DNA of 64,000 nt from Amoebophrya sp. A120 (GCA_905178155.1 CAJINV010000019.1:688475-752474); one strand, 5' to 3'; counted from the first letter of the stretch, positions 28,701-62,230 are shown. Numbers and translations are program-made. Notes: a model not told the origin generated them from the sequence alone.

Positions 28701-31700
28701 TATTCTCACCTTGGCAAACATATAGATTGCAAAAGTGTCTAAATCTGGAAGAATGCAAGTTTGTCATGCTTGTCTGGCATAACTCATAAATCTGTGACGC
28801 AGGAGCAGGAAAAGGACCTCTTGTCTGTCATGCAGAAACGCAGTTTGCCATGTGGAAAACGAAACACAGGAGCAGCTCAAAAATTTGTCATGCTTGGCTG
28901 CGTATTAGAGTGCGCCCACCAGTCACATTTTAGCATTACAAGTTTCCAGACCCAGACACTTTTGCATTTGATAAAACAGTCCGCGGCCGGGTTGGGAAAT
29001 CATGCTGTAGTTGGTTTAGAGCTGTAACGCCCGTTAGCATGAGAAATTGAGTAGAATTTGTAGTGAATTTTGCATGACAAATTGCAGGTGGGTCCGCCGC
29101 TACATTCTCCCTCTTGCCCTTCTGGGAAGTGGGTTCTGCACACCGCAGAAGTCAAGGCTTATGCGCCGGGCAGCTTCTAGACATGGTCTGGGTGCCGTTC
29201 TTTCGCCATGTCCATTCGTCTCCCTGTGCTCGCATAAGAGCACTGCAACAGCCGCGGCAAAGACGCCAAAAAGAAAGGCTGCGAAGCACATGCAATTAGG
29301 CAAGAAGGCGCAAAAAAAAGGGCCAAAGGACCAGGCCGAGAGCTTTGACGCGTCTATCCGGCAGGCGCGTGAACTCTCCAGGCCTTTTCGGCAGAATAAA
29401 ATATAAAGGGGCTGAGGGCAACAGAAGGCGCTTGTCTTTTCCCCTCGGCCCCACTTCCCAGGGCCTATGTGCGGACATTCTTAAGCACTTTGCTGCGCTG
29501 AAGTTTGCTTATCACGGTCGAAAAGGGGAGCCCTGTGAATTTTGGGGCGAATTTTGAAAAAAGTGCCGGTGAGTTTTGGCCTACGGCACTTGTTCAAAAT
29601 TCGCGGGCGCATGAGAAACTCCGGGTTTTGGAGCTCCAAAAAAGTTTCGCAAAAAGAAGAAGCCTCAAAATTCCCCAAGAAAATTCCTGACCTGGGGGTC
29701 ACGTCAAAGAAAACTAGAGGACCCGACCAAGATGAGGCAGGAACACAGCCGGGAAGAAGGTACAGAGCTAAGCAGGCGATGCCAGCATCCATCGCAACGC
29801 GCCTCCAGATATCCAAGCCGAGACAGCAACAACCCGTGACGCGACTTCTCTATTTTGGGATATTGAGCTACTGTCCCTGCCCCCCTTTCCAGGCATGGCC
29901 CTCCCTATCGATCCGCCACCATCGAGTCTGCGGATCAACATGGAGCATCGTGTTGTAAAACCGGCGCCACAAGCCACCTGTGTTGCTTCGCAGTCCACCA
30001 GGTGCGCCTCTTTGGGCAACAAGCGGCAAGCGTCCATAGGAGGGCAGCGTCACCAGCCAAGCAGCCCATCAGCACGGCGCGCTGGCTGCTTGTTTTCCTC
30101 GTGTTCGTCGCATGCACGTGATTAGTTCATGCATTGCCACGCAATACAAATTCACTGCAAATTCACCTTGTTGTATGCTAACGCCCGTCCTTGGCAAACA
30201 GTCCGCGGTCGTGTCGGGGAATCATGCTGTAGTTGGAGCTGACAAAAACGGCGCGCAACTGCAACTGGTGCTTTCGCACTCCTGCAAAACGTGTTTCTTG
30301 GCCGGGTGTCTTGTTCGTCTCACCCCTCCGGGAGGGGCGCCCAGGAGGGGTAGCCAAAAACGCGCTTTTTTGCGCTTCCCCCGATGCTACGAGGGGCACC
30401 CAAAAAAGGCCTTTTAGGGGTAGCCGAGTGGCCGTTTGCTTCTTTTTTGCCCGGGGGTGGATCCGGACTTTTAATTTAAAGTATTTTCTGAGATAAGCAA
30501 CAGGCGAATGCATTCGGCGTGGGGCTTGCCAGGATGTCGGGAACCGGAGGCCAGAATGGGGGTCTATGAAAGACGGGGGGGGCAAGCCTCTACTAGAGGA
30601 ACTCACGGAAGAGGCCGCGGCATCGTTTGCGAACGGCCGGAGCATGTTTTTTTCGCGCTAGCCCGCCCCGTGCGTGTGCTTTGCATTTGCCAACGCAATA
30701 CTGCGAAGGCAATTGCCCCATCGCAGGCAAACCCTCTCCAGAGCGCACCGCGCCCCTGTTTTTCTGCCCTTTCCCCAGCCTCAGAGGGGCGGCGGGTGTT
30801 CTCGGTGGGTGGGGCAACGGGATGGCGGGCGCAGGGCTCGAAGGTAGCTAACCCGAACTCGATGCGCCTTCTTGTGGTAGCCGCGGCCGGCACAGCGCTC
30901 CGACCAATCTCTGTGCGCCACACTCGTCGGACGAAGCGACAGAGCGAGCCGGAAGCCATGCGGCCACCAGCAGCTGCTACTCCGGCCGGTCTGCCTTTGC
31001 CACTGCCTGAAAGTGGGGCCTTTCGGCTACTTATCTTGTTCATGCATGAGGTGGGGCGCCGGGGCCGGCAATTCCCGTCAAACGGGAGGGGCGACACGCG
31101 CGACCCCTGACATTTTTGGACATTTTTGACAATTCCGTACTTAGCATCGCCAAACAGTCCGCGGTCGGGTTGGGGAATGATGCTGTAGTTGGAGCTGCCG
31201 ACGACGTCTTGATGTTTCTTCAAGGTCAACATCATAGAAGTACTAGTACTGTTCGTCCTGTACGACCACGGGTAGTCGGCCACGAAGACTTTTGTCAGGT
31301 TTGTTTCCGGAAAATCCCGTATCAAATGTAAAAATGTCTGGGTCTGGAAGATTGCCGGGTTTGTCATGCACATTTTGCATGACTCCTCAAATCTGTGACG
31401 CATGCCCTAGCATCACAGATTTTTAGAGGGCTTCCTGATGCCTATTCCGCATGACAAATGCTCTTTCCGTGCTGCAAAATTCGGACTCTCTTTGCTGCTC
31501 ATGCAATACAGATTTTTTTAGAATCCAAAATCAGCATGACAAGTTGGATTCTTCCAGACCCAGACATTTTTACATTTGATGTCCCGCTCGTATCTCCGGG
31601 CCAGCTCCTCGAACGCGGGTAGTGGCAGTGGGAGGGGTGGTATCAAATGTAAAAATGTCTGGGTCTGGAAGAATTCATGTTTGTCATGATTGTCTGGCAT

Positions 31701-37100: not shown

Positions 37101-38085
37101 CTTGGATTCTTTCGGCCGAGCGGTGACTTGAGATGCTGTACTAGCAGAATTATCTTTAGTATCTACAACGATGGTGTGTATCTAAATGTCGAAATAAATC
37201 GCCTCTGTGCTCGGGTTCTTCCTGCTATAAATATTGAATTATTTGATAGCTTTTTCACATCCAGCTAGTGAGTGACACTGCTCACACGACTAGTGGGATG
37301 GCCTAGTGCCTAAAATTCATTCTCGTGTTGTAGATACATTATCAATTAGTTCACACAGCGCGGCGATCATCTTTGTCTTTCGCGTAAATGTAGTTGCAGA
37401 AGTTCTTCTTTATTGGCATCTTTTGCAATGGACAACTTCCAAGAATGAAAATGATCTGAGCCGTATGTGTTTTGTGTTTGTTCTTCGCTTTGCCTACTTT
37501 TATTTTGGGTGTTTGCGTCGAGTTGTATACTTAGAGGTGCGTTTTTGTACAATGGGTGACATAGACATTTTTGATCAAGACGAGCTCGCTGGCATATTGA
37601 TGTTTCCGCTCTGGCATGTTTGCAGTAGAAGGCACTCTCGCTCAAGTAGCCGGAGGACGAGTGTTGCGGAAAAACTGTAGTGGTGGTGCCTTCTCCAACA
37701 AGTAGTACGTTATTACACCGTGCAAACGGTGCAGGAGCGCTTGGGAAGAACAACGAAATTTGCCTCTTGCAGGAACAACAGCCGGAACCAGAAACAAGGG
37801 ACTCGATGAATCCGAGCAATGCTGAAGCGAATTACTAGATTAGGTTATGACTACTTTGTTTTTCGAGCTCCTTCTGAACCTATGTTCTCTGTCGATTACC
37901 GTTTTACTACTTCACGACAAAAATGAAACGGTTGGAATTATGCTGGGGATCGATGATTACAACTGAAAGGACGAAGATATGGAAGAGGTCTATTTGATGT
38001 GCCCTAGCTAAAATATAATGTGTTGAATAGACAACATCAACAACTACGTGGGAATCAAGCCCAAGCAAAAGCAGGTCCTGGGCCA

Positions 38086-41000
38086 TTATTCCGTTTTTTG
38101 CTGTGTCTTTTCGTTTTCATCCGCGTCTGTGGAAGATGAAAACTTTTCCTCTTCTACGGACTTGAATTCCTGTTCGTCCGCTGCTTCTACCTCTGGAGCT
38201 TCACCTACTTTCCCGAGGTACACCCACTCCAGGAACAGGGAGGAAAAGTGTCCTCCTGTTGCGAGTTCCTCTGCGGTGTTTGTCGTGCTGCCATCGCCCT
38301 CCTGGTGCGCGTAGCGGTCCTGGAGCGTCAAGGGCGACACGTGCGTCGCCAGATCTTCCCGCATACACGTGCAATCGTAGTCCTTCGGCGCCTTCGCTTC
38401 GAAGTCTTGCATCCAACACATCTTCACACTTTCCTGCAGCTTGCGGTTCACCAGGTCTTTGCCCGGCAACCGGAGCGGCAGCTCCACCAATTCTGCGATC
38501 GTTCCCGGCCGAAAACTCAGGTCTTTACCTGTTTTTTTGCTTTTGCCTTCGAGAACTTCTTCATTTCCGTCACCCTCTTTGGGAAGAAGTTCTGTCGGGA
38601 TCCGCATTGCCTGGCCGATCCACGCGCGCAGCTGCTCATGTTGGATCTGCTTTTGCTCTCTCTGCCACTGCTCGAGCCCTTCCACTTTATCTTCAGTCTT
38701 GTTCATCTCCAGTAACTTTTCCCACCCAGGGAGGTGCATGTAGTAGCTGCTGAAGTCCAGGATGTGCGCTCCGAAAGTCTCCAGGACCCACTTCGTGCTG
38801 TAGCCAAAGTGGAAGCAAGCTTCCCCATACCGAGGATTAACCGACGGGTACAAATCTGTGAGGACGTCGGTGCAGCTGCCTGCCGGATCGTTCTGATGAG
38901 AAGTTGATGTTTCAACACCTTCTCGCCCCTCGCTTGCCTTCGCAATTTTATGGAAGTCCGCGATGCGGTATCGGTCCATCTCATTGGTCCAGGAAATGCA
39001 TTTATCAAGTGCAAAAATGTTACAGGGTCTGGAAGGTTAGAACTTGTCATGCTAAATCTGAATGATGCGAACATCTGTGTTGCGTGAGTACTAAAAACTG
39101 TCCGCTTTTGACCAAGTTGAGAGGGAGTTTCTCATGCAGGAAAGGCATGATAGAGACCTCAAAAAGTCTGTCATGCTGGGTCTCGCATTCCAGACCTCAT
39201 GAGTCATGGAAAACCTGCATCACAAATCTTGCATTCTTCCAGACCCAGACATTTTATACATTTGATAGGACTTCGGCCTCAAGGCTCCGATGTCCTCCGC
39301 ATCGATAGGCTTTCGCCGCCAGTCCCGTTGCCGCAGGGTCACACAGAGCTTGTCCTCCCGCATCAGCGTGCGCAGGTTGGAAAGCTTCCGGCGCGTCGCG
39401 GAGAGAAACAGCTGCAGAAGGTTCTTCTCGCTTTTTTTAGCAGACGAGGTACTACCGCCCAGATCGCGTTCGTTTAATTTCATTTCCTGCACATAGTCGT
39501 CCAGCGACATGGACGCCAAAGCGTTCAGATTCCGCTGCAGCGGCGTCATATCTCGGAACATAAGTTCCACCGGCAAGATCTCCTCGTCGCTTGAGTGAAT
39601 GAACATGGTCACATTGCCGAACAGGAAAGTAGACCCTTTCTCACGAATGGGGACTGGTGACTTTTGTGCTGGACTTGATGTTGCAGCTCCTGCCTTTGCC
39701 TTGTCGTTTGTTCGTCCTGTGTTTATTTTCATTTCAGCCAATTTGTACGTTGGGCCCTTCACCAGTTCGACCTGCCCTTTTAGAATCTCTTGTAGCGTCG
39801 CTCTTCTGGCCGGCTCCTTCAGTGTGTACAGTCTGTCCAAAGCGGTCCGGGCCGTGAGTTCGGGAAACAAGTTCCCCGACAGGAAATAGTGGAGCAGAGC
39901 CTCGTGGTCGATGGCTCTGCGAAAGCACGCGACGGTGTCGAAACAGCCAAAGTTTTTCATGCAGGTCACCTCGTCAAACCACTGCCGGTGCACGTCCGGA
40001 AGCAGGACCGGCGTTGCTTTCTCGGACCAGTAGGCGAGGATGTCGCAGAGAAGATTTTCGTGGTTGTGGTTATACTTCCCCTCAAAAATGTCCTCGTCGA
40101 AGAGCCGCCGCCGCTGCGATTCCACTTCTTCCACACTGGCCGCCTCCTCCGGAGTCCGGGGCGGTCCCACGAAATACGGGGACTGGATTAGCCAGACGAC
40201 TGCCTGGCAAGCGGCTGCGAAGCTGGCGAAGGTCTCGAGGGTCCACACCGAGGAGTACCACACTTGGATCACGTGATCGATTATCAAATGCAAAGATGTC
40301 TGGGTCCTCTGGAAAATTGCCAGGTTTGTCATGCATATTTGGCACGAACCATGATGTCTGTAATGCATGAGTGACCTAGCAACATCACACATTTTTAAAA
40401 AGCTTTCTGATGCCTTTTCCGCATGAGAAATGCCCTCTCCGCGTAGCACAGAAAACTCCTCTTGCCCTTCATGCAATACCGATGTTTTTCGAATCCAAAG
40501 ATAGCATCACAAGTTGCATCCTTCCAGACCCGGACATGTTTGCAATGCATATCGATCGGGCAGCTCTCCGTATCCAGCATCTTCGAGATGACGAGAAACT
40601 TCGCCAGTGTGTACAGGTCGTGGCAGTAACCAACAAAACGGGTTTGCGGCCTAGAAGGACCGTTTTTCATTTGCTCCGTGGAAGAGTTTTTGCTTGCCTC
40701 CGCGGTCTTGATGTCAGGATTGTTGACTTCCTGGAGGTGATTTTTCACGTCAAGATTTTCACGGTTCTGCTCATCCGACCTCTCTTTTTGACCTGAAGTA
40801 CTACTAGATCGCTGTGCCACTCGTTCGACGTCTCGAAATGCTGCTTCCATTTTTTCCAATTCCGCTCGCTTGTCGAGGACCTCGTTTGGAACAAACTTGG
40901 CGCTCATCATATGCATTGCAAAAGTGTCGTACTAGTATGAATTGCATCACAGATTTCCTCAGCATGAGAAATGAAATGTGTAATGCGGATTTGCCTTAAT

Positions 41001-44000
41001 ATCGGGATTTGTAATGCATGACCGCGATTACGATTAGTACGTGTACGACACTTTTGCAGTGCATACATCAGCTCCTGGAAGTCGAGAAAGCCGACTTGAA
41101 CGTGTATGAAAGTGCACAACTCGTCCCCCTCCCCCTCATTTGTGATGCAAAATTCCAAATCCACCCTTTGCATCTTAGCACTGTTTGCATGACAGAATCC
41201 GGAATCCAAAACCGCACTGCAATCCTCTAGAAATTTGTCATCCAAAAGCTGCATCTTTGCCAGCGCTTCTGTTGCTGTTCATGCAACACAAGTGAGCGGG
41301 AGGGAGAGTTGTGCACACGACTCATAACGTGCGTGGTGTGTTCACAAATCTCCACCGGCCTCCTCGCTTGCCCGCACCCGGGTCTCGTGTCCCACGGCCG
41401 GTGGGGCGGGAGGTCGCCGTGTCCCTCGCCGGGAAGTCGGGTGTCTCGAGTCGGCGCCACGGAGTATGGAAGCGTCAGGTTTGAAATCGTCAAAGTTGAA
41501 ATAATTACTATTTAAACAGCAGCAAACCAGAGTTTTTGAAGCTTTGGGGTGTGTTCTGGGGTATGTAAGGTGGCCGCGTAGCACCGTGATTCGTAATTTG
41601 CAGGGCACACCCCGAACACACCCCAGACACACCCCAGACACACCCCCGACACACCCCCGACATACCCCCCGACAAACACCCCCGACAGACCCCGGCCGGA
41701 ACTTTTAAGGCTTTGGGGTGTGTTCTGGGGTATGTAAAGTGGCCGCGTAGCACCGTGATTCGTAATTTGCAGGGCACACCCCGAACACACCCCAGACACA
41801 CCCCCGACACTCACACCCGACAGACACCCCCGACACTCACACCCGACAGACCCCGGCCGGGACTTTTGAGGCTTTGGCCTGCGTTCTGGGGTATGTAAAG
41901 TGGCCGCGTAGCATCGTGATTCGCAAGTTACAGGGCAAGCCCCGAACGCACCCCAGACGCACCCCCGGCAGACACCCCCGACAGACACCCACGGCAAAGA
42001 CCCCCGATACACCCCAGGCAACCACACCCAGGGCAGGGGGCAGAACAAATATCCAGAGCGGAGAGCGTTTCCGGATCGATCCGAATCGCGTGAAAGATCC
42101 AGAGCGGCAGAAGTATCCAAACCTGGCGCATTTAAATAGTCTCGCAACCGGCGTCATTGCATACGAACGCGGCCCGGCATCAGGCCTCCGGGCCCAGCTG
42201 TTGACGCTTTGGACTCGGTCCCCACGTCATGACCTAGGGGCCAGCTGTTGGCGCTTCCCAGAAACTAACCGCGCGGCCCAGGGGCAATCAAACAAAAGCC
42301 CCAGGGCTTGCAGCTAGGGGACTCGCTCCCCCCATCATGACCTAGGGGCCCGCTTTGGGCGCTTCCCGGAAACCAACCGCACGGCCCAGGGGCAAAAGCC
42401 CTAGGTCAACGCGGGGACTCGGTCCCCGCGCCATGACCTAGGGGCCAGCCCTTGGCGCTTCCCGGAAATCAACAGCACGGCCCCGGGGCAAAAGCCCTAG
42501 GGCAGCGCGGGGACTCGGTCCCCGCGCCATGACCTAGGGGCCAGCTTGTAGCGCTTCCCATACACTAGCCGCACGGCCGAGGGGCAAGGGCCCTAGGGTA
42601 GCGCGGGGACTCGGTCCCCGCGTCATGATCTAGGGGCCAGCTTTTGGCGCTCCCCGTACACTAGCCGCACGGCCCACGAGCAAAAGCCCTCGGGCAGCGC
42701 GGGAACTCGGTCCCCGCGTCATGACCTAGGGGCCAGGTGCCGGCGCTTTGTTTCCGGAATGAATGAAAGAAACTAACCGCGCGGCCCAGGGGCAAGAGCC
42801 CTGGGGCAGCGCGGGGGCTCGGTCCCCGCGCCATGACCTAAGGGCCGGCTTTAGGCGCTTCCCGGAAACCAGCCGCACGGCCCAGGGGCAAAAGCCCTAG
42901 GTCAGCGCGGGGACTCGGTCCCCGCGTCATGACCTAGGGGCCAGCTTTTGGCGCTTCCCGGAAACTGACCGCACGGCCCAGCCCTAGGTCAGCGCGGGGA
43001 CTCGGTCCCCGCGCCATGACCTAGCGGCCAGCTCTGGGCGCTTCCCGGAAACTAACCTCACGGCCCAGGGGCAAAGGCCCTAGGTCAGCGCGGGGACTCG
43101 TCGGTCCCCGCGCCATGACCTAGGGGCCAGCTACAGACCCGGCGCCGGAGTTATCGGCGCCCCGCCCCCCGGCCCGGCGCCAGCTTCTTCCTTTCTTTTC
43201 TCCCTGCCCAGTGCCGCCACAACCCCCGAGCCCCCTCGTCCCAGACAAATGCCGGAAGGTCGCCGCACGGGGACTCTGTCCCCGTGCTCGGACCTTGTTT
43301 GTAATGCATAAAATGCGATACAAAAAGTGACTCTATTGCAGAGGACCCACGGGAAGCAGATTATAGTCCTGGTAAGGGTCAAAAGTTGGACTGCTGACTA
43401 GCATGACAGAAGGCAGCTCTTTTGCCCTAAACCGCATGACAGACTCGCTTCCATGACCGGGAAAATTTGTCATGCACCGACTACAAACTGTAGGTCTAAC
43501 TGGTATCCGTTTTATGCATGACAAAGTATTTCAACTTTGACGATTTCAAACCTGACACATCCATACGGAGGGTTTCTGTGATATCGCATGATCCGAAGAT
43601 GAAGAGGGATCTTCTGCAGTTCCATCGGCAGATGTTGAGCCTTTATTTTCTGCCTTAGCTGCTACCTTCAACACATTTGGGCTGAAGTCGCGGAGGTTTT
43701 GAAACACGTATCCCAGAAATTTTCTTTTTCCACTATAACCTGCTCAGGTGTTACAATCTCAAACGCTACAATAGAGTCTGAAACTTGTCGTGTTGCAAAA
43801 TGCGCAACATCTGGCCCACTCCCACAGGAGCGAGCATGACAAGTTTCGGAGCTCCAAACTCTATGAGAATATCGCGCAATTTCTATTGCGAAAAGCCGAA
43901 GTCTCTGTATGGCACTCATGCTGTTTATGCAAGACAAGTTTCAGTCTCTATTGCAACGTTTGAGATTGTAACATCTGAGCAAGCCATATCCACTGCCAAC

Positions 44001-47000
44001 TAGCATCGGGTCCGTCAAAGCGGTCAGCTGGCCGTTCAGCTCGGTGTGACAGAACTCCAGGAGTTGATATGCAGCGTAGCCAATTTGTATCGCGCCATGA
44101 TCTTCCACGTTGTCGGTCCACCACCGCTGCATTACCATTTCCGGCTGCGCATTGGTACATGCCAATGCCATCAACGTCTCGGGCTTCTGCTCCAGCAGAT
44201 TTTTCACGAACAGATAGTACGGCTGCACGTCGGCCTTCATTCGAGAAAAATTGAAAAGTATGTCCACCATTTCCATGTCGGTCTCGAGGCCCTCGGGCAG
44301 GCCGATGGGGTCTGACGAGCCAGGTCTGAATACTTGTAACTCGGGCCGATTCAGGAGGGGCAACAACCAAGGCAAAACAGTCGGTGGGAGTTCCAGACGG
44401 CCTCGAGTAGGGTCCAAGACAAAGAAACTCGACGAGGAGTCTTGCGCTTCAGAAGGCTCCTCGTCCTGCTCCGTAGAAGAAGTGCAGCGTTGCGCCGCAC
44501 GCATCCATTTGTCTTTCTCGAAAATGGTGCCATTGCGCTTCTTTGAAACTAAAACGTGATCTGTCACGAACCGTTCCAAAGAGCGGGCGTGCTCGTATTG
44601 TCGCTTGGCGAGGGCGAGACGCTTCGCGGTCAACTCGGCGTCCTCCGCAAGCTGCTTTCGCTCCTCCTCTTCCCGCAGGGCGCGGCGCTTCCTTTTCAGG
44701 GCGTGCTTGCTCAGCTTGCTAGTGTCCTCGTCGTGGAAGATCATCATGTCGGGGTTGTGTACTAGTAGTGTCTCCTCTGCTTGTTCAACATCCTTCTCTG
44801 CGGCCCCAACTGCTTCGCTCGCGCCACCAGCTGCCACAAGTTTTTGATCAAGAAGACCACCATCGTCTTGTTCTTCGCGACCCCGAGCGTCGGGTGTCTC
44901 ATCTGTTTTGTTCTCATCTGGGGTTGAGGCAAAAGCTAGCGCTTCTCTTTCGGTGCAGCGATCAGTTTGCGATTTGTTTGCGGTGTTGTTGATGATATTT
45001 CCCTCGTCGTCAACTACTCGCTGTACTACCTGGTGGTCTCCAGCCGATCCATTCTCGCCAGTAGGAGCCGTGCTGGTTTCCTTTACCGCCTCAATATTTT
45101 CACCCGGCACGAGTGTAGTAGTTGGTGTGGACGACGAGGATAAAGCAGCGGGCGCGGGGGTAGAACTAGAACTACTATTTTTATCTTCGATTACTATTTC
45201 TTTTGTCCAGGGAAAGACAATCGCAGAAGAAGTAGCTCCTGGTGCACCAGCAGCACCTGCAACCTCTGCGGAGAAGTAGCGCCAGCTAAAGGACAGCTGG
45301 TGGCTGCTGGAGGTTGAGAGGGGGGACAAGAGATTGAGTCCGTTTTCCTCGCAGTGCGCAATGATGTGCTTGGATTTCTTGCAGAAGAAGTCTTTGACCC
45401 AGCTCGCACAGGTGACCTGCTGCAAGACGTACCGGCAGAGCGAAAGAGCGGGCAACCGCAAGGGAGTGCTCAGCAGAGCGCAGTGATAATGGTCAAGTAG
45501 CACTTTTGCAACTTGGCCACTGGCGTGGAGTTGTCTCCGCGGGGGGATCAACATCCTGGAAGGTAGTTTTTTTACCGGTGTAGGACCATTTGACGCTCGT
45601 CCCCCAGATGGCTCCTCTTCGTCTTCATCGTCCTCCACATCTTCATCGTCTACCGCTGAGTGCAATTTCGTTTCTGCTTCTGCATAAAGCGCGGGCCTTG
45701 CGTTATTACTGGTTTCAGCAGCGTTCTTTGCTGGAGGTTCAACATCGTACGACAAGGCAGCTCCGCTCGACGTTGTTCGGTGTCCCTTCCTCGAGTAGAG
45801 GAACCCGTTTTCGCTGCAGCAACACGCCAGAATTTGTCTCACTTTTTTCAAGGTTTCGGGGTCTTGCTGGTACAGGTAGGCTTCGTCGGAGTTTTCATCT
45901 CTTTCGCCGCGCTCCTCTTGGGGCTTTTGTCTGGCGCGAACATAGCGATCCCACTGGTCTGTCGATCTGTTCGGGTCTGGAAGCGCGAGGAAATCGGTCA
46001 GGCAGGCGCCAAAAGTCTCCCCGATCCAATTCAGGGAGTAGGCATAATGCGTCGTCGGTAATTGCTGCTGCTGCTGCTGCTGGTGCGGTTTTCGACTGGC
46101 CCTTCGTGCCAGCTCGTGGAAAGCGTCAAGCGGGTATCTGTCCACCTCGTTGGTCCAGGAAACAGTTGCTGGGTTGTAAGTAGCAATGAAGTCGGCCAGG
46201 TCGTTCCTCCGACTCCATTCGTCGTGGGTTCGGTAGTGCAGAAAGACCTGAACTTTTCTGGACAGCAGGCTGCGCCGGAGGGACTGCAGCTGCCGCAGCG
46301 TCCGTCGGATAAATAGCTGCACGATGTTGCGTATTTCCCCCGCCGCTGCCCGTTTTTGATACTGCTTCCGCAGCAGAGTGGGATCGCATAGAGCGGTCTT
46401 GGGTTTCTTTCGTGTGGAAGATGGTGATGTTGTTGTGTCTGGTCGTTTACGAGAAATTTCAGTACTTTTATCCACTTGTTCGGCTTGATGTTGTTCAAGA
46501 TCGACTTCGAGTCGGCGACCGGCGTCATCCCGGGCTAATTCATCAATGTAGTCCTCGATGGAGAGACACGTCAGTGCATTCAGGTTTTTTTCCAAGCCCG
46601 CCACTATGTTCGCTCGAAACATAGTGATGTTTCCAAGAAATAAGGAAGTGACGTTCGTATCAAGAACATCCGGCTCATCATCTCCTCGCCCCTGTTGCTT
46701 AGTTCTGCTCTTTTGCTTTTGTCCCTCGTTGTTTGTCTTTTTGCTGGTTCCGCTTTGCTCCTGTTTGTCTACTTCCTCAACATCGACGAGCCCCCGCCCC
46801 CCAAGAGCGTCTTCATCGGTAGAAGAAGTTTTTGCTCCCGCAGCGACGCGGTCCATCCCTTCGCCTGGCACGAGTCTCCCGGTAAGGAGGTAGTGAACCA
46901 AGGCCACGCGGTTCGCCTCGCTCTTGAAAGAGGGAATCGCGTTGAACGCTTCGAGAAATTTCGTGCATGCGTGTGTGGAGAACGGCACGCCCGTACTTTT

Positions 47001-50000
47001 TTTCTTCGTCTGCTTTTCCACGACGCGGAGGTACGCGAGCAAATCTTCTGAAACACGGTCGTACGGCACGGGCCGGCCGATCACCGAGCTCATTTCGGCC
47101 CCCACCACGTTGTTGAACCAGGTGCACGCGGCTTCAGTCGGGGTGACCGGCTGTTCGGTGGCCGTGGCGAGCCACTTCTCCAGGAAAAGCAACACTGACG
47201 GGTCCCCGACCATGTCATCCGCTGCTTCGAAAGACAGCTTTTTGGCATTCTGATTCTTCTTGTTACCAGAAGAACTCTTCGCAGAAGTAGTAGTAGTTTT
47301 TGCTGACTGGTGCTTCTCTGGCTCTTCCTCGTCTCCCTCTGGTGGCACAACTCGTTTGGCACTCAGGACCACAATGGCAACCCTGCAGTGCGCGATGAAA
47401 CTTTCCAGTGCAGCAAAGGTCCACATCGAGCTGTACCAGACCTGCAGCACGTGCTCGAGCGGCGTGTCCTCGGAGAGCAGCATGAATTGGATCACCGTGA
47501 ACTTGGCAACGGTGTAGGCGTCGTAACAAATGCCGACGAATTTCAGGCGTTCGCTCTCGTGCGGGAGTTGCAGCAGTCCGCCTGGTGAACAAGACGGGGA
47601 AGAGCCACTAGTGGTCGTTTTTTTGCCGTCCGGACTTTGTTCACAACTCTCAGAAAAAGTTGAAGTTGTCTCACCACCAAGAATCTTCGCGTTCATGAGC
47701 TCCTGGAAGTCGAGAAACCCGACTTGGACGTGGGTCGTTCCTTGCACCAAAGTGATCTTGTTTCCCGTCGTGCCCCGCGTGTCCCACGGATGCCTGCGAA
47801 AATCCGTGTACAGCGAAACGGGTCGGTTACAAACCAACCCGTCCTCGCGTTCCAGATCCAATTCCATTTCCTCCTCCTCTGCCAGGGCCTTTTCATGGTC
47901 GACAACTTCGGTGCCTTTGCTGGCGGACTTGTAACTCATCTGTGCTGCTGCGCGCACCTGCTCAGCTTCGGCAAACACGTCCTTGACGACCTGGAAGCCG
48001 TAGGGAATGCGGGCCTTCACGGCCCGCTCCCTATTTCGCATTCTGTCCAAAAACCGCACGCCTTTGATGCTCTCCAAGAGCATTTTTGGAGGGCTCGAGG
48101 TGGTGGACGAGGAGGTCGTGCTACCAGAACTGGACGATGAAACAAGCTGCGAAGTGGACTCTTCGTCGCGTGCTGTCGAGGCAAGGCTCGTGGTGGTCTC
48201 GCCGCTTTCCGGACTAGTATACAAGTCGCTGCTGGAAGTGGTATGTGCGGCTGTACCAGACGAGGTGGAAACTGGATCGTGATTTATTCCAAAAATACTA
48301 CCACTGTGCGCAATCGCAGCGGACTCCTTCTTGGTTTTCCCGTAGCGAGTTGTACTGACGACCACCGGTTGCAGTGCCTTGCGCCACAAGGCAAGCTTGT
48401 CCATGATGCGGATTCTCTCTGTAGACGACACCATGACCTCACCCAGCATCGGGTTCCGTGCGTTCAACCAGCGAGCCTCCACCAAATCCTCGTCAAAGTG
48501 CAGATCCCGCCAGAGCATCGCGAAATCGCCGGTGCACAGCGACATCGCGCCCTTCCAGGGCGAAATGAAGCCCAGAAAGAAAGCGGGATACAGCAGTTTC
48601 TCGAAGAAAAACGTGGGCGACGCAGCGAATACTGGGTTATTTTGCCGGAAGTTCGTGTCCTCCGGGGGGATATGACGGACAAGGTCCGCTTCGCAAGGGT
48701 TACAGGATCCGGTGCGGGCAAAATCGTCCATGTATGGTGTTGTACCAGGTGATTTTGTATCTGAAAGAAAACCACCTATACGACCATTGCCGTAGAACCC
48801 CCTTGCGATTTTGTGTTTGAAGTGCGCTAAAAACTCCAGATGCAGGGCTTTGTGCGTCTCGTAGATCTCGTCGGAGAAGTGACGACTTTGCCGGAAAATT
48901 GCCTCTGTGTCGATGCCGGTGTCCTCGGGTTTCGTAGTCACGTACGCCAGCAGGGCTTCGAAGGCCAGGCACTTCTCGAGCATGTTCGGTTTTCTGTTGT
49001 AGCCGGAAATTAGAATTTGTTTCAGCGTATCCCCAGCGGCCTTGATGAATTTTTGCGTGTCGCTCGACTTTAAAACCTTCGCATTCAGCTTGTTCAGCTT
49101 CTTGAGGGTTCTTCTGTGGCCTGCGGGCGTCCGAGGTTCTGCGCCCGGATTGATGAAAATTTTTGTTGTAGGCAGCACTTCTACCCCTGTCGTCCCTCCG
49201 GGTATGGGTAACACCTCCAAAGCCGGGGGTGGATTGGCTTTTGTGGTCTGTTGCACTTTATCTTGTTTATCTCTACCGGCAGCTGCAGCTGTAGTTCTAT
49301 CCGGTTTATTTTGCTTCGTCGTCTGGCTTGTCGAAGCAGCGGCCGAAGAAGAGGGGCTAACGCCCGGCGAAGATTGTGGCTGGAATGCGGCATTTTGACG
49401 ATGCGGATGCCGCGAGGCAGGACCTCCTACTTCATCGGCAGCAGTTGTTGAAGATATACCCGCGAGGACACCTGCACTGGTTGATGATGCAAGCGGGGTG
49501 CTGCCGACCACACCGCCAGGATCACTCTCCAAGTCCAATTGTATGAGATCCGCTTTTGCCGTGTCTTCGTGTATCATGTTGCTATCGGCCCCGGCCGTTG
49601 TGGAAGTGGTCTGAAGATTCGTGCTGGTTTCTACTACTTCCCAGGATTTACTACTAATTTCACCCAAGGCGTCCCTGTTTTCCAGCGCGCGAAAAACGGC
49701 TGTTTTTGTGCGAATCGAGATCGTGCTTTTCCCGGCGCTAGATGAGGAATTATCCGTGGCACCGACCGAGTGGTTCAACATTCCACCGCCGCCAAACAGA
49801 TTCGTGGGGAAAAGGCGATGCAGAAAGTCCACTAGCGGGCCGTCGGGTCGAAGGAGCTGCGAGGCTAGCGCAGACGACGTCAGCCACTCGCCTACGGTTT
49901 CCTTTCTGGTCAACCGCAGCCCCATGTTGCTGTACCCGGGCCCGTGGCGGAGCAGCGCGCACTGCGCACCCAGTTGCTCCAAACAGCGAATCTGCAGTAC

Positions 50001-52562
50001 CCACGGGTCGGGATTCTGGTGGTCTAGCAACGCGGCGACACAGCTTTGGAGCAGCGCAAAGCGAACCATGTCTAGCCCTTTCTCTTGCTCCGACTCATCG
50101 AAATACTTTTCCCTCTCCATCCTCGCCTGCTCGTCTTTCACGACCTTGAGGGCCATATTGCTCTCCAGACATAAAACTTTTCCGCAGTGCTTTGCCGTCT
50201 CCACCATCTCCTTAGTCCAGAACAGCAGTCGTGCGTATGCCCGCTGCGTTTCGGCGCCAAATTCATGCCGGCGGAAAGGTGATTTCGCCTGGTCTTTGGC
50301 TGCTTCGAACTCCTGGTAGGTGGCGCGCTCAGTAGTTGTAGAGGTTTTATGGTTGTCGTTGTTGTTTTTCTCCAGTTGACACACCTCCTGTCGCTGTCTC
50401 TCAAACACGTCCATCACGCCCGGCAGCGCGACGGTCGCTGCGAAGGAAAGATTACATAGCTCCTTCACCGCTTCTTCTTTCACATCAGCAGCAAAGTTCT
50501 TGAACATCTGCAGCGTGCCGGTCCCGCGGTCCCAGGCCTTTCGCTTGGCGCGCAGAGCTGGGGATGGAGACTCGAGATAAACGAAAAAGGGATGCCCGGG
50601 TGGATCATAGAAATCTTCAGAACAACACGCATTTTCCAAAACGCCTCTTGTTCTTCTTGGTGGAATTAGCGACCGAGTTGTTGGAGACGGTGGAGATAAT
50701 GATGATGCAAAAAATCCCCTCGTCGCGACAAAGTTAGTAACGAACTCTCCGAGCAAATTCACAATCGCGTCTGGGACGGCCTCGTTCTTGGCACGGAGAA
50801 TGTCCGCGAGAATTCGCCAGGCCCGAAAACTGTCCACGTCGAGCACGCAAGCAATCAGCGCCGCCCGGATGGCCTCGGCTGACAAGTGGTTCGATTGGTA
50901 AAAGCAGTAGCCGTAACTGGCGTAACAACTGGACAGCTCAATTCGGTTGGGAATGCTGGCGAAAGCCCGGCGGTAGCACAGCAAAGCGAGTTCCGCCTCG
51001 TTGCCGGGGGACGTCAAGTCCTTCTTTCTCAGATCGCTATAAAGACTATACCGAAAGGAGCGATCGTCGCGTGTTTCGGCATCGTTTTTGTCCGTTTGAT
51101 TTCCTTGCCCAGCAGGATCCGGACGTTGAAAATACTGTTGCTCAAACTTTTGCCCCAGCGCGATCCAATCGCGAATGTCCTTCGGAAAGGCGGGCCAGGA
51201 GAGGATTGCTTGTGCTTCGGCTTTGTGCTCCACCGGCAGCGAGGAGGTGGACGTCGACGCACTAAGTACAATTTTGACCGTGAAGGTGCAACGAATACCG
51301 CTGAACGTGGGAGCTTCAATAGGCGTCGGTGCGCCCGATGCGGCAGTATTAACTTCATCAGGAGGACCACCATCATCATCATCAGCACAGCGATGGCTCA
51401 CTACAAGCGGCTCTAGCAGCATCAACCCAGTGCCAGGAGGGTATTTGTTTTCATCTTCACGTAGTTGGCACCAGTGTCCGCTGCCTCCTCTCTTCGTGTC
51501 GCTCGTAGAAGTTTCGGTTGTTCGCTTCTCCTTGTCCTTGCTTCTCTTACTGGCCTTCTCATTGTTTCTTCTACTGCTAGGCTTATCGTGGTCTTCTTTG
51601 CGTTTGTCGGCTACTCCTACTTCTGGTTCTGCTCCAGGAGCCGAGACTTCGCGCGCCGGCAAGCCAACGTCGTTCTTGCCACGACTGGCATTGACATTAA
51701 GGCTATAATCTGGTCGGGCAAGGTGGTCGGTTCTTGTTTTATCCTGCTGAGCAACTGCGTCAAGTGGAAGTGGTGCAACATTTGTGCCTGTCTCATAGAT
51801 GATGATCTGCAGCAGGTCTCCGAAGAGGTCTTCGAAGAGAAAAGTCGTGGCAATGTTTTCTCGCGATCCGCTTGATTGTGTGGCGGCAACGATAGCAGCA
51901 CTATCTTCTGTTACCCCACTTCCGGCTGCGTTTACCTTCGCTTGCTTTCCTCCGGCGTTTCTAATTTTCTTGTCCATGTCCTCTCCCGCGCGGCTGGCTG
52001 CTGCAGAACTGGCACCGGATGCGGCGGCCTTATTCCGTCCCGGTTTTGCAATCTGCCCCGCAGTCTTAAGTTGTGGTGCCTTACTCAGAGCAACAGCATC
52101 GTTACAACCGTTCGCAGTCGATGTCGTTCCGCTTCCGGTTTTTTCCTCCACAGCAGCCACACGGCCGCACAGGTAGTAGCCTCTGTGCTTGAGCTCATTC
52201 GAAGAGGTCGCGTCTTCCGACGGAGTTGCACCGTCAAATTCTGCCGCGAGCAAAGCATTTTCGTGCAAATTTGCCAGTTCCCGGAGGGAGTAAATGGGCC
52301 GCAGGGACGAGAGGGAAGGTGGTGCCGGGGGAGTAACGGTTCTTGCTGCAGTATGGTGATCCTCTGGAGAACTTTTGTCATTGGCCGTATTCTCGTGGTC
52401 ATCTTGAAGATGATGAATGCCTTCACTAAAAACTTTTGCGATATCTGAAGTGTTGTCTACCTCCGGGGCATTTGTGGAAGTACATGTGCTGACGAGATTG
52501 CTCACCCCCGCGTTCTTGCCGGCGCGCGCTTCCAGCACGTCGTTCTCTTCTAAATCGAACAT
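38086..52562 (-). CDS. Giant 3725-aa protein with TPR-like helices and two copies of an uncharacterised domain
   Basis: 2873-aa ORF continues through 6 introners (LVGSG|KRK, KPS|VAP, TTH|VQVGF, QELM|SAK, CPID|HVIQVWY, PKS|ISWTNE); spliced 11178 nt; four of these joins rebuild motifs that are uninterrupted in the first copy. Confidence 0.85.
39003..39267. mobile_element. Introner family A
   Basis: Direct repeat decayed (GCATT/GGACT); join validated by the internal paralogous motif SWTNE.DRY. Confidence 0.85.
40282..40551. mobile_element. Introner family A
   Basis: Direct repeat TCGAT. Confidence 0.9.
40910..41065. mobile_element. Introner family C
   Basis: Direct repeat CATCA. Confidence 0.9.
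41105..41326. mobile_element. Introner family G (TIR TATGA..GTGCACAACTC)
   Basis: Direct repeat ACGTG; splits TTHV|QVGF. Confidence 0.88.
41530..42030. repeat. Tandem array, 3 units of ~160-170 bp containing CACACCCC(A/C)GA subrepeats
   Basis: Units begin GCTTTGG..TG.GTTCTGGGGTATGTAA at about 41541, 41711 and 41871. Confidence 0.9.
42200..43132. repeat. Tandem array, about 10 units of ~96 bp, most with a GCGGGGAC-TCG-GTCCCCGC hairpin
   Basis: Recurring GGGACTCGGTCCCCGCG.CATGACCTAGGGGCCAG. Confidence 0.92.
43734..43988. mobile_element. Introner family H (TIR ...TGCTCAG.TGTTACAATCTCAAACG)
   Basis: Direct repeat TCCAC; ~50-bp TIR. Confidence 0.9.
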
Positions 52563-53231
52563 TTTGATTTCCAGAAGAAGATTTGGAAACGAGGACTAGA
52601 AAGACTCTCCCTAGTACGAAAGAGAAAATTTACGGTGTAGTCTGCACTTTATACAATTTCCAAGCCAGGGAAAAGGGACCTGCAAAACGAGAAAAGATGA
52701 GATATGACGCTTGATAGATGTAACAAGTTGTATGTGGTCAAACACAAACTGAAATGGGGACGTCGACATCAGCATCACATAGACGGAGCATTTTGTCGTG
52801 CACGAAAGTATACTAAGAGAAGTACGAAAAGAGGACCAAACGGTAATTCCAAGCGGGCAGAACCAGCTAAGAAAGAACGACGTCGGTATGAACGATGTAG
52901 GTTTCAGCTATTGACGAATTATGATGTTTAAGTTTATGTGTCGATCGTGACGGCCGTGTTTCTGTTTTAGCACGTTGTACGAGTCGGACGACGTGGGTGA
53001 ACTTTTTGCTGGAGTACTCTTCCTGTTTCTACTTTTATGACCACGAGAAGCAATAAATTCGAAAAGAAAACGACAAAGCGTGGAAAGAACCCTAAATCAG
53101 AATACCAAGAACCCTAAATCAGGTGCGCAACAAATCATGACTTCCGGAAAGTCAGCACTGTAGTGTGTACCAAATGACTTCGTGTGAGACCGCAGTGTTT
53201 CTATTGCGTCGCAGCATCATGATCATCTACT

Positions 53232-56197
53232 TCATCGCTCGTCCTCTGGAGAGTGAATGTGAAGATGCTGCGCATGTTCGTCATTTATTTCGTCAAGCTT
53301 TTGTAGTTCCGAATCCGAGCCAGCGTCTGCGTCAGACTCGTTTTCCATATCGGAAATTTCATCTTCCTCACAGCTTTCTTCCTTGACAATGGCTCCGCGG
53401 CCACCTGGTTCAGCAGGACCCGCCTCGTCGTCATCTCCACAGCCTCCTGTTGCTCCTTCCGCATAGTTGTACGCATGATTGCAAAGGTCATCATGCCCCC
53501 TGGCGTTCGCTTCCGAGCTCTCTTCATGCCCTGTCGCTTGCTTCTCGGGCTCGGCACAAAAGCTAGGGTCGTCAAGAGAATGAGAATTGTTTTCAGGGTG
53601 CTCGTGATTGTCGTCGTCCCCGTTAGATTGTGATTGACCTTGAAGATGGCTTTGTTGATCATCTGCAAATAATCCCCCTGGAGATTGAAGATCATTCGTT
53701 CCCGCCGTCGTGCGAGGTTGGTTCCCGTTCATCGTCACCAGTTTTTTATCCACTTCTCCGCTCGACAATGCAGTTCCAGTTCCCGCAGCTGGTGCCGTGA
53801 CTGTTCCCAACTTCGGATTTTCCGGATGTTCCAAAATCCGGAACATCACCTTCCGCCCGGAAAGTTTGAAATACTCGGCATACAAATTGTCCTTGACAAA
53901 CTTCCGCAGCACCCCCTTCGCCTTTTCGTACACTAATTCAGAGTTCGCAACCACGGAAATTTGGTACTGGTGGTTGGAACGAGATACAGGATGATGGTCG
54001 TGGTGTTCATCTTGGAGCTGCTGTCCTGAAGAAGATCCTCCTGCTGCTGCTGCTGTCTCCATGGAGGAAGTTTGTCCAGCTGCTGCGGCTGGACCAGCAG
54101 TCTTCTGCGCGACGTTCTTGTGCTTCTTAACTAGCTTGAAAGTCACACCCCCGCTGGCGCACGATTTTTCTAAGTCCAGGATCGTTTTCGCTGTCAGGTA
54201 TTTGCTCATCAGTTCTTGCACCTGATGCTTGATATCACACAGAAAAAAGCTGGCAGGGCAGACTTGTAATGCTAAAATAAATACACAAAAAAATTTGCAT
54301 TGCTTACCCTAATCAGCATGCTATGGGGCTGCCCATGACAGATTTTTCTGCGTGTTTATTTTTGCATTACAAATGTGCCCTGCCAGCTTTTTTGTTTTTC
54401 TGTGGGATACTGGAAATCGTGGTTGTTTCGCCCGTTTAGTCCCCGCAGGTTGTTTCGTGGATGAAGCTGCACAGAAGTCGCGGTTGAACCCGCCGAAGAA
54501 CCAAAAGTACAAGATGTTGACACGACGATCCCAGAAGCAGCTCCGGTTAATACAGGGCCAAATTCTACTTCACCTCCAGCACCTCCACGAGCGGGCGCCA
54601 CGTCGTCTATTCCAATCGGCACTATGCAGAGCCACTTCAGGGTTCTCTGCAACACAGTGACCTCCTCGTCCTTTGCGAGTAGAATCCGCTGCTGCCACTT
54701 TTTTTCCATCTGCTGCTTTTTCCGCTGCTGTTGGTAGTACCGCTTCACTTCCTTGTTATACGCCGCGTAGGCGGTAGCAGTACTGTGCGACGGATAGTAG
54801 TAGTTTTTAGTACTCGCGAATAGAGCAGCAGAGGGGAAGTAGGGAGGGGTGTGTGTTGATGCTGCGTCCTCAACATCCAAAATCAAATCCGTCCCATTCA
54901 CATGGTACTTCGCAAGGCGGTCGTTTTGAAGTTCATGCTTTGATGGAAGCTTGTGCAACTTGTCCGGTAGTTGCTCCATCTGCGAGGACAATGTAGAACT
55001 TGTCCTTTCGTTGCTGCTCGAAAAGAAATTCATCGCTTTTTTCACCTCATCATCCCCAACAACTTCTTTTCCATACTTCAACGGGAAAACGTGCTCGGTG
55101 CCTCGTTCCAGGGACCGTCCGACACACCACGCCATTTCGTCGCAAAACAAAATTTCCATGAGCTCGCCGAGGAAAAAGAGGTCGCGGTTGCGTTTTTTGA
55201 TGATCTTCACAATTGGGAAGGGAAAGGTTGAGGATTGGTCTTGCTGGTCATGGTTTCCCGCTGTCGTCGCATCATGATGTACAAGTTCCGTTGCGCTGTC
55301 GGGGGTGGTGCTAAAATTCTTCTCCTCCGATGAAGATGATCGATGAGGACCAAGAACAACTTCCGGATCAACATTCGACGTTTTTTTCCTGCCGCCACCA
55401 AGAGCAAGAAGAGCAGCGGCATCGGGGTTTTGGTACTGCAGATCCTCGGCGAAACTACTGGAAATTTCGGAGATGGTTGAAGTTCTGGGGTTGTTGTCTT
55501 CTAGTACCACATCACCAGCATCTTCTGCAGACTGCCTGCCTTGACCTTGTACTTGTGCCTCGTTTATTGTCGTAGTGGATTCGGCGTCGGCGTCGACGCA
55601 TGGTGGTTTGCGTTTGTCTTCAAATGCAGATAAATTCGAGCGGCTGGTGGTGGTGTCCACTTCTTTTGAGAAGTAGTTCTCTTTTTTATTCTGCGCGATT
55701 CCTGCAACTACAGGCAGATCATCGTCGTGTTCAATGGTCGTGTCTTGGTCGCTCCCATGGCCATGCAGCAGCTCTTGGCTTTCTGTCTCATCATCTTCCT
55801 CGACTTCGTCTAGCAGAAAGTCGTGAAGATGCACGGCATCATATCCTGAGTAAAAACGTACCCACACCAGAGTTGTAATGCAGATTTGCAAAGACAGGAA
55901 GACTTGTAATGCGCATCCCCATGAGAGCCATTTCCAATCGTGTTTTGGAATTTGTGATGCTGTGAACAGGATGAGCAGACGAATCTGTGACGCGGCTGCA
56001 CTTGCTACCCTGCACTACACTGCATAGCGAAACCTGTCATGCGTGACTCACAAAACTCCTAGGTTTGTGTATGCAAAATCCTCATCCTGACTCTGGTGTG
56101 GGTACGTTTTTACTCAGGATACATCAAAACTGTCCGTCTGGGTCTGCTGCTGGACCACATAGAAGTCGTCCAGATCGAAACCCTCGAGGAAATCCAT
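53232..56197 (-). CDS. Uncharacterised 832-aa protein with an SH3-like segment (2 introners)
   Basis: Joins TDSFD|AVHL and HDFQ|HQVQEL; spliced 2499 nt; GELMEIL...AWCVGRSLERGTEHVFPLKY resembles SH3. Confidence 0.75.
54233..54409. mobile_element. Introner family I (almost complete fold-back)
   Basis: ~60-70-bp TIR TATCACACAG..AAAAGCTGGCAGGGCA; direct repeat CTTGA/CTGGA. Confidence 0.88.
55842..56121. mobile_element. Introner family B
   Basis: Perfect TIR TATCCTGAGTAAAAACGTACCCACACCAGAGT; direct repeat CATCA. Confidence 0.92.
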
Positions 56198-60300: not shown

Positions 60301-62230
60301 GCTATGTATCAAATGCAAATATGTCTGGGTCCTCTGGAAGAATGCAGGAGTTTGTCATGCAGATTTTGCATGACCCATGATGTCTGTGATGCATGCCGTA
60401 GCATCACAGACTCTGCGAGGACTTTCTGATGCCCATACTGCATCAGAAATGCCCTCTCCGCGTAGCAACAAACTCGACTTCTTTTGCTGTTCATGCAATA
60501 CAGATTTTCTGTAGAATCGAAAGGTAGCATCACAAGTTGCATCCTTCCAGACATCCAGGGATATTTGCAATGCATACTATGAACGGCGGAGGGGTCCTGT
60601 TCCACCACCACGACTTTTATCGAAGAAAAAAAGTTCGTCACGATCACTCATGCGCATTCTTGCAATACAAAATTGTTTGTCATGCGTAAAAATGCATCAC
60701 AGACAAACTTCATTAGGGAGTTCCCTAGTGTTTCTGCAATACAAGGAAAGTTTGTGATGCTGAGAAAATTTGTAATGCAAATCCTGCAAGTTAGTGAGTG
60801 TGACAAACTTTTTTCTCTCCATAATTTTGTGGGGTCTTTCAGTTTCAACCTGGGTCTTCCTATTCTTTGCATCAGCATCACTCTCATCATCTTACCATCT
60901 TTCATCACGATATGGATGTGTCAGAGTTGAAATCGACAAAGTTGAAATAATTTGCCATGCATAAAATGGACGCCAGCTGGAACCCAGTTTCCAAGTGGCG
61001 CATGACAAATTTCGGCGGTCCCTAAATCCAGTCTGCCATGCTGTTTAGGCAAAGAAGAGCGATTTTCTCATGCTACTTTAGCAGCTCGATCTGTAACCCC
61101 AAACAGGCTGACAATCGGCCTCACTTGCCTGCTCTGCAACACACGTGCCTCGGGTCATGCATTTTATGCATTACAAATTATTTCAACTTTGACGATTTCA
61201 AACCTGACGCTTCCATACACGACGCGCGTCCGCTGCGCGGGTCCCCGCTTCGGCGGGAAGTACCGCCTTGTGGATTGCAAAAATGTCTGTGTAAACTTGT
61301 CATGCAGGTTTTCCATGACCCATGAGGTCTGGAATGCTGGACTTAGCATGACAGACTCTGTGAGGTCTTTGTCATGCCTATCCTGCATGAGAATCTCCAT
61401 TCCAACTTGGTCGAAAGTGGACAGCTTTTGCCGCTCATGCAACACAGATTCTTGCATGATTCGGATTTAGCATGACAAGTTGCAATCTTCCAGACCCAGA
61501 CATGTTTGCAATCCATACGCCTTCTCCGGAGCGGAATGCGGGCCTGCCGTCGGCGGAACGGAAACCGCGCCGGTCTCTGTTTGAGCCCGCTCAATACGGA
61601 CCAGCGGTGGGGAAACACCGACGGCGGGCGCGGGTTGATGTTCTGGTTGTTATGCAAGGAAGCGTCTTGTTGTGACAGGCTCGGAGTACTTGGTGGATTT
61701 CTTGCCGGCGGTTTCGGAAGAGGCGGTAAAACAGGTTGCGGCTGCTGCGGCTGCTGCTGCTGCGGCGGCGGCTGTTGTTGTGCAACTGCACCAGCATTGG
61801 GAAGGCTTTCTGCCGGCGGGGCGGCGAAAAAAGGCGGGAAAACCGGGTGAAAAAGCTGCGTCCGAGTCTGGTGTAGCAACTCGGGGTAACTGCTCTGGGC
61901 GCCGGACGCAGATTCTTGCACCGCTAGAGGTGCTGCCAGGACTAGTCGGCCACCGGGGGGCGGTGGGCTGGGGAGCAGGGGGAGATGGCCTGCATCGGCA
62001 GTCGCCCCCGCGACAGCTTTGTCGGCTGCCGTTGAAGTTGTACCAGTTGCACCAGCTTCCGCTTCGGCATTGGAAGCAATTTCCGATGCGAGTGCTACCT
62101 GGAAATAAAATAACGATCGCGAGTAGAGCAACAAAAAGCTGCTGCTCGCGCCGAAAAGTACTTGCGCTGGTGCCCCCTGTCGTGCTGCGGTACTCCTAAA
62201 ACCTCCTCGGCCGGCGCCTGCATTGCGCAT
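57397..62230 (-). CDS. Class I alpha-1,2-mannosidase (glycoside hydrolase family 47), 796 aa; 8 introners plus GT-AG introns 58509-58644, 58885-59050 and 59813-59949
   Basis: GH47 motifs AWGKDEVRP, LDSLDTL, SVFEITIRGLGGLLSA, AEVGTLQLEF, GAMGDSYYEYL, MDHLACF, LRPEAIEAL, ESFFMAETMKYFYL, STEAHP; spliced 2391 nt; start codon inferred. Confidence 0.93.
57453..57665. mobile_element. Introner family J
   Basis: Direct repeat TTCCG; splits the conserved TE|AHP motif. Confidence 0.9.
57855..58034. mobile_element. Introner family I
   Basis: Direct repeat AACAT; long TIR. Confidence 0.92.
58098..58371. mobile_element. Introner family A
   Basis: Direct repeat ACAGA; IEAL|YYLH. Confidence 0.92.
59346..59610. 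mobile_element. Introner family A
   Basis: Direct repeat CCAGT. Confidence 0.92.
60307..60576. mobile_element. Introner family A
   Basis: Direct repeat CTATG. Confidence 0.9.
60618..60823. mobile_element. Introner family K (TIR TAT.GA.GAAAAAAGTT.GTCAC)
   Basis: Direct repeat ACTTT/ATTTT; DPTK|SWWW in frame. Confidence 0.8.
60911..61217. mobile_element. Introner family E
   Basis: Direct repeat CACGA. Confidence 0.92.
61269..61517. mobile_element. Introner family A
   Basis: Direct repeat CGCCT; left end is TGT instead of TAT. Confidence 0.88.

Follow-up and report, generated by a model that had tools for sequence, protein, structure and literature searches.

A reversed, 2.1-kb introner of Amoebophrya sp. 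A120 with a likely rolling-circle-type insert, and its likely removal by RNA splicing

The introners of Amoebophrya A120 have been described as repeated, non-canonical introns bounded by inverted repeats that start with TAT and by direct repeats at their borders, with a consensus end of TAT, seven variable bases and at least three A (Farhat et al. 2021, PMC7789003). Introner-type introns are thus a known class, and intron creation in both orientations is published for Polarella glacialis and Aureococcus anophagefferens, in which it is brought about by inverted-repeat transposons with one orientation favoured (bioRxiv 10.1101/2020.10.14.339549). The nonconventional introns of euglenids carry CAG/CTG motifs, and circles are formed on their release (PMC11282704). 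Opposite orientation and secondary insertions are treated as routine in PMC9860276, secondary insertions also in PMC12130899.

The window analysed here is a single 64-kb stretch of Amoebophrya sp. A120 DNA (64,000 nt), and the locus of interest within it is a full-length element of a family named E, 2,101 bp long (41465-43565), which starts with TATGGAAGCG, ends with ACATCCATA and has TAT..ATA ends identical to each other at 28/30 positions. The flanking 5-bp duplication CGGAG is perfect, as the original prediction had stated, and the true junction homology is 6 nt (ACGGAG). This segment is likely a non-coding, non-autonomous cut-and-paste DNA transposon, an introner of the Amoebophrya type. 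Four features of the class according to Farhat et al. were found at the locus, i.e. inverted repeats at the intron ends, a 3-5-nt border repeat, membership in a repeated family, and removal at non-GT-AG borders (in runs X1 and X2, presumed to be RNA).

Like the described A120 introners, the element is non-canonical, with TAT inverted repeats and border direct repeats, and stands among many families in co-oriented genes; unlike them, it is a reversed copy, 2.1 kb in length, with a nested element inside, and its terminal repeat is ca. 60 bp instead of 8-20 (PMC7789003). The length as such is unremarkable, since introns of tens of kb are included in Table 1 of that work. The ends also lack the run of A at positions 11-13, which is a strain-level consensus and not a definition of the class (PMC7789003); family E has TCA at these positions, where A was present in 32, 31 and 33 of 39 window elements, respectively. 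Non-canonical ends, inverted termini, duplication-like repeats and a length of up to thousands of bases are shared with the euglenid nonconventional introns, which are set apart from the present element by their CAG/CTG motifs and release as circles (PMC11282704).

Table 1. Coordinates of the 2.1-kb introner, its nested insert, the surrounding host gene and related copies in the window.
Feature	Position	Strand	Basis or remark
Family-E copy, 307 bp, opposite orientation, duplication GTTCT	13366..13672	.	
Host gene, ca. 3,725 aa from first Met, six introners	38086..52562	-	Three exon pieces scanned, no Pfam match (0 families)
Introner of the same host gene, imperfect duplication GCATT / GGACT	39003..39267 (with duplications 38998-39272)	.	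X1 joins 38997 to 39268
Downstream host exon (VAPTRD..)	41327..41459	-	Loose letters of X2 contig = 41429-41458
Target-site duplication copy CGGAG, downstream on transcript	41460..41464	.	One copy left in joined contig
E short arm, outer 42 bp of ca. 60-bp terminal inverted repeat	41465..41506	.	Alignment
Nested insert, 1,793 bp, boundaries slide 2 nt left over TT	41507..43299	+	Global alignment to empty copies
About three tandem units of 161-169 bp, CACCCCCGA-type microrepeats	41534..42030	+	
About nine GC-rich tandem units of 96 bp, each with a 10-bp-stem palindrome and CTAG or CTAA 6 nt later	42211..43139	+	
Terminal palindrome, 10-bp stem, 3-nt loop, 10-12 nt before insert 3' end (..CTTG|TT)	43265..43287	+	Also in L001
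E long arm, 266 bp, with intact terminal inverted repeat; intron 5' end	43300..43565	-	Alignment
Target-site duplication copy CGGAG, upstream on transcript	43566..43570	.	
Upstream host exon (..AISQKPS)	43571..43733	-	
Family-E copy, 307 bp, opposite orientation, duplication CACGA, within GH47 mannosidase gene	60911..61217	.	

Three copies of family E were located in the window, and a fourth in a metagenome contig (L001). Against the two 307-bp copies of the window, the 2.1-kb copy was identical at 231/306 and 232/306 positions (ca. 75%), with one single gap of 1,793 bp in the global alignment, and it represents a diverged subfamily. Positions 41465-41505 matched the end of the copy at 13366 in full (41/41). 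The swapped orientation of the ends, noted originally from the termini, was borne out by the interior, which aligned to the copies at 13366 and 60911 with scores of 94 and 97 when reversed versus 25 and 24 in forward direction. Behind the E end at 43565/43567, mixed flanks were present in 36 and 12 contigs, respectively, of the DNA-like run X4, which is the behaviour of a mobile end.

In total, 41 introner-like elements were catalogued in the window, 35 of which were found by script and six by hand; the search required TAT..ATA, and the invariance of both triplets is therefore by construction. A count of TAT..ATA spans whose ends match and whose 5-bp repeat is perfect gave 33 versus 0-2 per shuffle (20 shuffles), and under a strict score 16 versus 0, so introner-like elements are present beyond chance. 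The 41 elements made up eight multi-member families and five singletons, and all orientation links between them were consistent. Because seven of the eight multi-member families were found in both orientations within the 64-kb window, reversal is ordinary here: it is common in this genome and no peculiarity of the 2.1-kb copy. The long reading frames of the window are on the minus strand. On these co-oriented genes, the largest family (family A, 816-61517) was oriented 11:2 (p=0.02, for a family chosen post hoc), owing either to insertion bias or to selection on splicing.

All three host genes of family E were confirmed to be on the minus strand, with open frames once the elements were removed in silico. 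For the 2.1-kb copy, removal of all six elements of the host gene, each together with one duplication copy, resulted in a single frame of 3,736 codons (52595 to 38086), in which the junction reads KPS|VAPTRD, and the preservation of frame claimed at the outset thus stood; when the 2.1-kb element was kept, the frame stopped at codon 2930. The six introners were all located in the last quarter of the frame, downstream of an uninterrupted stretch of 8.6 kb. The host protein contains an internal duplicated module (ca. aa 1620-2250 versus 2945-3515, 23-55% identity in pieces). For the copies at 13366 and 60911, the frames were 235+868 (1,103) and 474 codons, the latter leading into a Pfam GH47 domain, and this continuity of frame suggests that the two forward copies would be spliced as well. 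The GH47 gene (57400-62422, minus strand; glycosyl hydrolase family 47, alpha-mannosidase) is cut by about eight introners.

Evidence for removal of the element came from contigs of one sample (X1 and X2), the RNA status of which is presumed. Five of 10 runs were compared with the window, X1, X4, X8 and X9 over 37600-56600, and X2 and X4 over 43130-43730. One X1 contig of 8,019 nt covers 37822-49139, and its listed pieces contain no mismatch. Adjacent pieces of this contig show that the introners at 39003, 40282 and 43734 are removed, and the number of letters outside the listed pieces (166) is the one expected if those at 40910, 41105 and 41465 are removed exactly. In an X2 contig of 7,976 nt, the letters before 43565 are those of window positions 41429-41458 with one duplication copy kept, i.e. 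the exons are joined at the predicted junction. The transcript does not end before 41465, as the downstream exons are on the same 8-kb contig, nor is the downstream part a separate gene, both exons being on one contig. In X4, depth was flat at ca. 44 on exons, the element was retained, and contigs crossed both exon-element borders at single-copy depth. In the raw RNA runs, matches were limited to part of one unrelated introner copy (X8) or were nil (X9, 0 reads).

The 2.1-kb element is thus likely removed, together with one duplication copy, by RNA splicing. Two related elements that face opposite ways, at 39003 and 40282, are both absent from the same X1 contig, and this directly supports the view that either orientation is tolerated. 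Removal tolerates both reversal and a length of 2.1 kb, and to this extent the proposed independence of orientation and length was right; its orientation part was somewhat overstated in view of the 11:2 skew of family A.

Short direct repeats next to a strong stem are a signature of reverse-transcription artefacts, and both are present here, so the exon join could in principle have come from a reverse transcriptase that jumped from one direct repeat to the other at the base of the hairpin. The evidence at hand consists of contigs, and artefactual introns confined to cDNA are documented (PMC8240250). Against such a jump, however, all six elements are absent from one contig, and X1 cover is nil at 42038-42671 inside the insert; the element at 39003 was removed with a junction homology of 1 nt; retention of the 2.1-kb element truncates the protein; the peptide TTHVQVGFLDFQELM, which extends across the 41105 junction to the 40910 junction, is intact in the uninterrupted duplicate module; and the window contains 41 such elements, many of them within long frames. 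We regard the jump as highly improbable. Precise excision from DNA in some life stage, with X1 and X2 representing DNA of that stage, would leave the same footprint (loss of the element and one duplication copy), and the RNA status of both runs is presumed only. The X1 contig, however, stops 264 nt beyond the stop codon and its cover ends near the first Met, and depths are uneven between contigs as opposed to the flat depth of X4, where the elements are kept; such excision is accordingly a very slight prospect.

With splicing of RNA as the favoured reading, the borders at which it takes place are not those of conventional introns. None of the seven equivalent placements of the 2.1-kb intron gives GT-AG, GC-AG or AT-AC, and under any equivalent shift such borders are possible in only four of the 41 elements. 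In Polarella and Aureococcus, G(T/C/A)..AG sites are supplied by the duplication or the element (bioRxiv 10.1101/2020.10.14.339549), in contrast to their absence from 37/41 elements here. A cryptic GT-AG rule acting through the composition of the duplication was rejected, as the duplication bases were unbiased among 34 perfect cases.

The perfect duplication leaves several placements of the cuts in the 2.1-kb intron, and it is the neighbour at 39003, with its imperfect duplication and junction homology of 1 nt only, that supports a pinning of the cut sites, the geometry being that of one element (n=1). The X1 contig retains the transcript-upstream duplication copy of this introner, and two equivalent placements remain (CT..TG or TA..GC), which put the 5' cut where the duplication meets TAT or 1 nt earlier, and the 3' cut 5 or 4 nt beyond the closing ATA. 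On this model, a splicing machine would place both cuts at these distances from the symmetric element ends, whatever bases follow the ATA, and would restore the original coding sequence at any length and in either orientation; the insert would be removed passively along with the intron.

As to the nature of this machine, a modified major spliceosome that reads the element ends is preferred over a separate cut-and-ligate enzyme. We give the former a slightly better than even chance, and the latter, of the kind proposed for euglenids, a tentative standing well below even. In the text of Farhat et al., the majority of spliceosomal proteins are reported to be present, and U1 snRNA is reported to be missing (PMC7789003). 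The reading as a whole, i.e. a reversed introner with a likely rolling-circle-type insert that is spliced in RNA, its ends measured by the splicing machine, is one that we hold with good confidence.

The original prediction had gone further and made removal dependent on paired termini. In the minimum-energy fold of the whole intron, 38 of the 42 terminal bases pair across 2.1 kb, and the predicted 42-bp terminal duplex has an energy of -59.6 kcal/mol. A requirement for an RNA stem of both terminal repeats, with removal done by a non-spliceosomal enzyme, would be consistent with this duplex, with the absence of splice dinucleotides, with the outer 42 bp being spared by the insert in the 2.1-kb copy and, as far as the long arm shows, also in L001, and with the precedent of euglenid introns (PMC11282704). 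On the transcribed strand, however, G-U mismatches were not in excess over A-C mismatches (12/20, 26/35, 35/36 and 61/59 at 12, 20, 30 and 40 nt) among 39 of the 41 elements, those at 22365 and 22675 being left out as members of a perfect duplicate, and this lends no support to selected RNA pairing, in a test that is weak because copies inside a family are related. Positions 4, 5 and 7 of the ends pair in only 21, 21 and 13 of the 39 elements. Complementarity of the termini is needed for transposition anyway, and is therefore no evidence of RNA pairing. Inverted repeats moreover show the same sequence at each end either way, so symmetric ends suffice for orientation-blindness, and dependence on pairing is unproven. 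The terminal stem may assist removal, its necessity being hypothetical; a strict requirement for it seems unlikely to us.

How introns of the Amoebophrya type are excised is an open question (PMC7789003, PMC11282704), on which the locus places three constraints. Reversal is tolerated, as are a sevenfold gain in length and the shortening of one terminal repeat by its inner 18 bp, and in one neighbour (39003) the cuts are set by the element ends and the direction of transcription and not by GT/AG.

The element nested within the E ends, suspected already from the sequence, was delimited as an insert that splits the ca. 60-bp terminal repeat 42 bp from the element end, cutting off the inner 18 bp. 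Since this repeat is uninterrupted at the opposite end and in the two 307-bp copies, the insert is a later arrival, and descent of the 307-bp copies from the long form as their parent was rejected on the same ground. The empty site is AATAATTTGT; its flanks share only TT, and no other target duplication was found. Four contigs of X4 show the empty site, diverging at 43298. Summed X4 depth over the 3' end of the insert was 2,284-9,409 versus 37.5 on exon, a figure that is not a copy number and that suggests the presence of the insert in many copies.

The insert contains two tandem arrays, of ca. three 161-bp and ca. nine 96-bp units, as well as a tail of 160 bp. CTRR follows all of the listed array palindromes (8/8) and does not follow the terminal one, to which the array palindrome is related. 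The insert's two longest frames had no Pfam match. An Rfam search of 41400-43650 gave five weak matches to miRNA families, all far under the gathering scores and thus set aside as chance. The terminal palindrome had 0 matches in the viral contig set, and the array unit was found at one locus in the metagenome contigs.

The insert likely works as a non-autonomous mobile element of rolling-circle type, to judge from its ends and target. Its terminal palindrome of 23 nt, 10-12 nt from the 3' end, corresponds to the 16-20-nt palindrome of Helitrons at ca. 11 bp, slightly over the range. Insertion between A and T holds in one of three equivalent placements, and a 2-bp duplication of TT fits equally. 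The TT target with T at both flanks is that of Helentrons and HINEs. The canonical 5' TC of Helitrons is missing, the insert starting with TT, TA or AC depending on the placement of the boundary, as is the canonical 3' CTRR, the end being CTTG(TT) both here and in L001. Subterminal inverted repeats of 12-15 bp, as in Helentrons and HINEs, were not found either, the best inverted match between the ends being 6 bp; an inverted 10-bp copy of the 5' end is located at 42131, far from the 3' end. In view of these three results, the insert was not classed as a Helitron. Identity with a Replitron was considered as well, and the search for terminal direct repeats gave nothing longer than 5 bp apart from the TT.

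Compared to non-autonomous Helitrons and HINE/DINE-1 elements (PMC4067079, PMC10288648), the insert is thus similar in its 3' palindrome ca. 11 nt from the end, T-rich target, lack of a clear duplication, internal tandem repeats and non-coding nature. It differs in ending TT..CTTG instead of TC..CTRR, in the absence of paired subterminal inverted repeats, and in that both of its observed occurrences occupy the same fixed site in another transposon (PMC4067079, PMC10288648).

The second of these sites was found in a scan of metagenome contigs, in which a further E copy, on L001 (JACKZZ010008494.1), carries this insert end at an identical position. The contig ends within the insert. With other introners removed in silico, a 348-codon open frame begins at the element end, and according to this predicted frame the composite would face the opposite way relative to transcription. 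In positions 1-2454 of the contig, six further introners of window families were observed in the one 348-codon frame, with 73-86% identity.

Between L001 and the 2.1-kb copy, the insert ends are identical at 88/96 positions (92%) and the E arms at 175/265 (66%; Fisher p=4e-7), where the identity of the insert ends could be inflated by constraint on that end. The E arm of L001 is nearer to the empty copies (200/265 and 203/265, 75-77%) than to the 2.1-kb copy. With arms diverged and insert ends alike, a single ancient insertion with no later exchange is unlikely. The two filled sites (n=2) are most simply read as independent insertions at one target; an arm-swapping composite would fit them too. 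The comparison hints that the insert may be a passenger that targets introners. In its full form, this reading would make the insert a site-specific element of rolling-circle type, with one target in the terminal repeat of family E, that rides into genes and is spliced out free, which we consider quite possible while giving it somewhat less than an even chance.

Alternatively, the insert may have entered family E once, after which the composite either multiplied as a whole or recombined with empty copies and so exchanged arms, and no targeting would be involved. The dissimilar arms next to similar insert ends, and the greater closeness of the L001 arm to empty copies, speak against this course of events. 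Nonetheless, just two filled sites are known, a conserved 16-bp motif beside the junction could serve crossover, and behind the 3' end of the insert no cluster with mixed flanks was found among the 12 of 66 loose ends of X4 listed, an absence that fits targeting equally. We place the composite only just short of an even chance.

Should the targeting reading hold, the locus would clearly show one mobile element profiting from the splicing of a second, with introners as the safe haven of a targeting transposon; if it is false, what is seen here is a nested insertion of the ordinary sort, within an intron class already known. In the literature searched, the text of the sources contains no report on how Amoebophrya introners are oriented or on a passenger of this kind, the passages on orientation seen in Farhat et al. 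being about genes, although figures or supplements may hold one. The passenger insert may accordingly be new. New to a modest degree are the RNA-level support (from presumed RNA) for removal of a reversed and enlarged introner with no canonical sites, the one pinned cut geometry, and the candidate passenger that targets introners.

Several other features were observed in the window. Introners with an altered terminal triplet are located at 31320-31581 and 61269-61517 (sense start CAT and sense end ACA, respectively), and the predicted frames stay open upon their removal in silico. Lone introner-like ends at 8616 and 9236, for which a partner end and matching duplication were absent within 12 kb, are possibly truncated or decayed copies. 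An additional introner-like element with the duplication AGCCG/GGCCG is present at 63445-63658, outside the catalogue of 41. The region 21047-23637 comprises a perfect tandem duplicate of 1,295 bp with the only N of the window (22342) in between, probably an artefact of scaffold joining. A 54-bp tandem array was found within an open frame at 7613-8023, and a dispersed repeat of ca. 550 bp at 16066-16608 and 19948-20529, the two copies of which are 81% identical.
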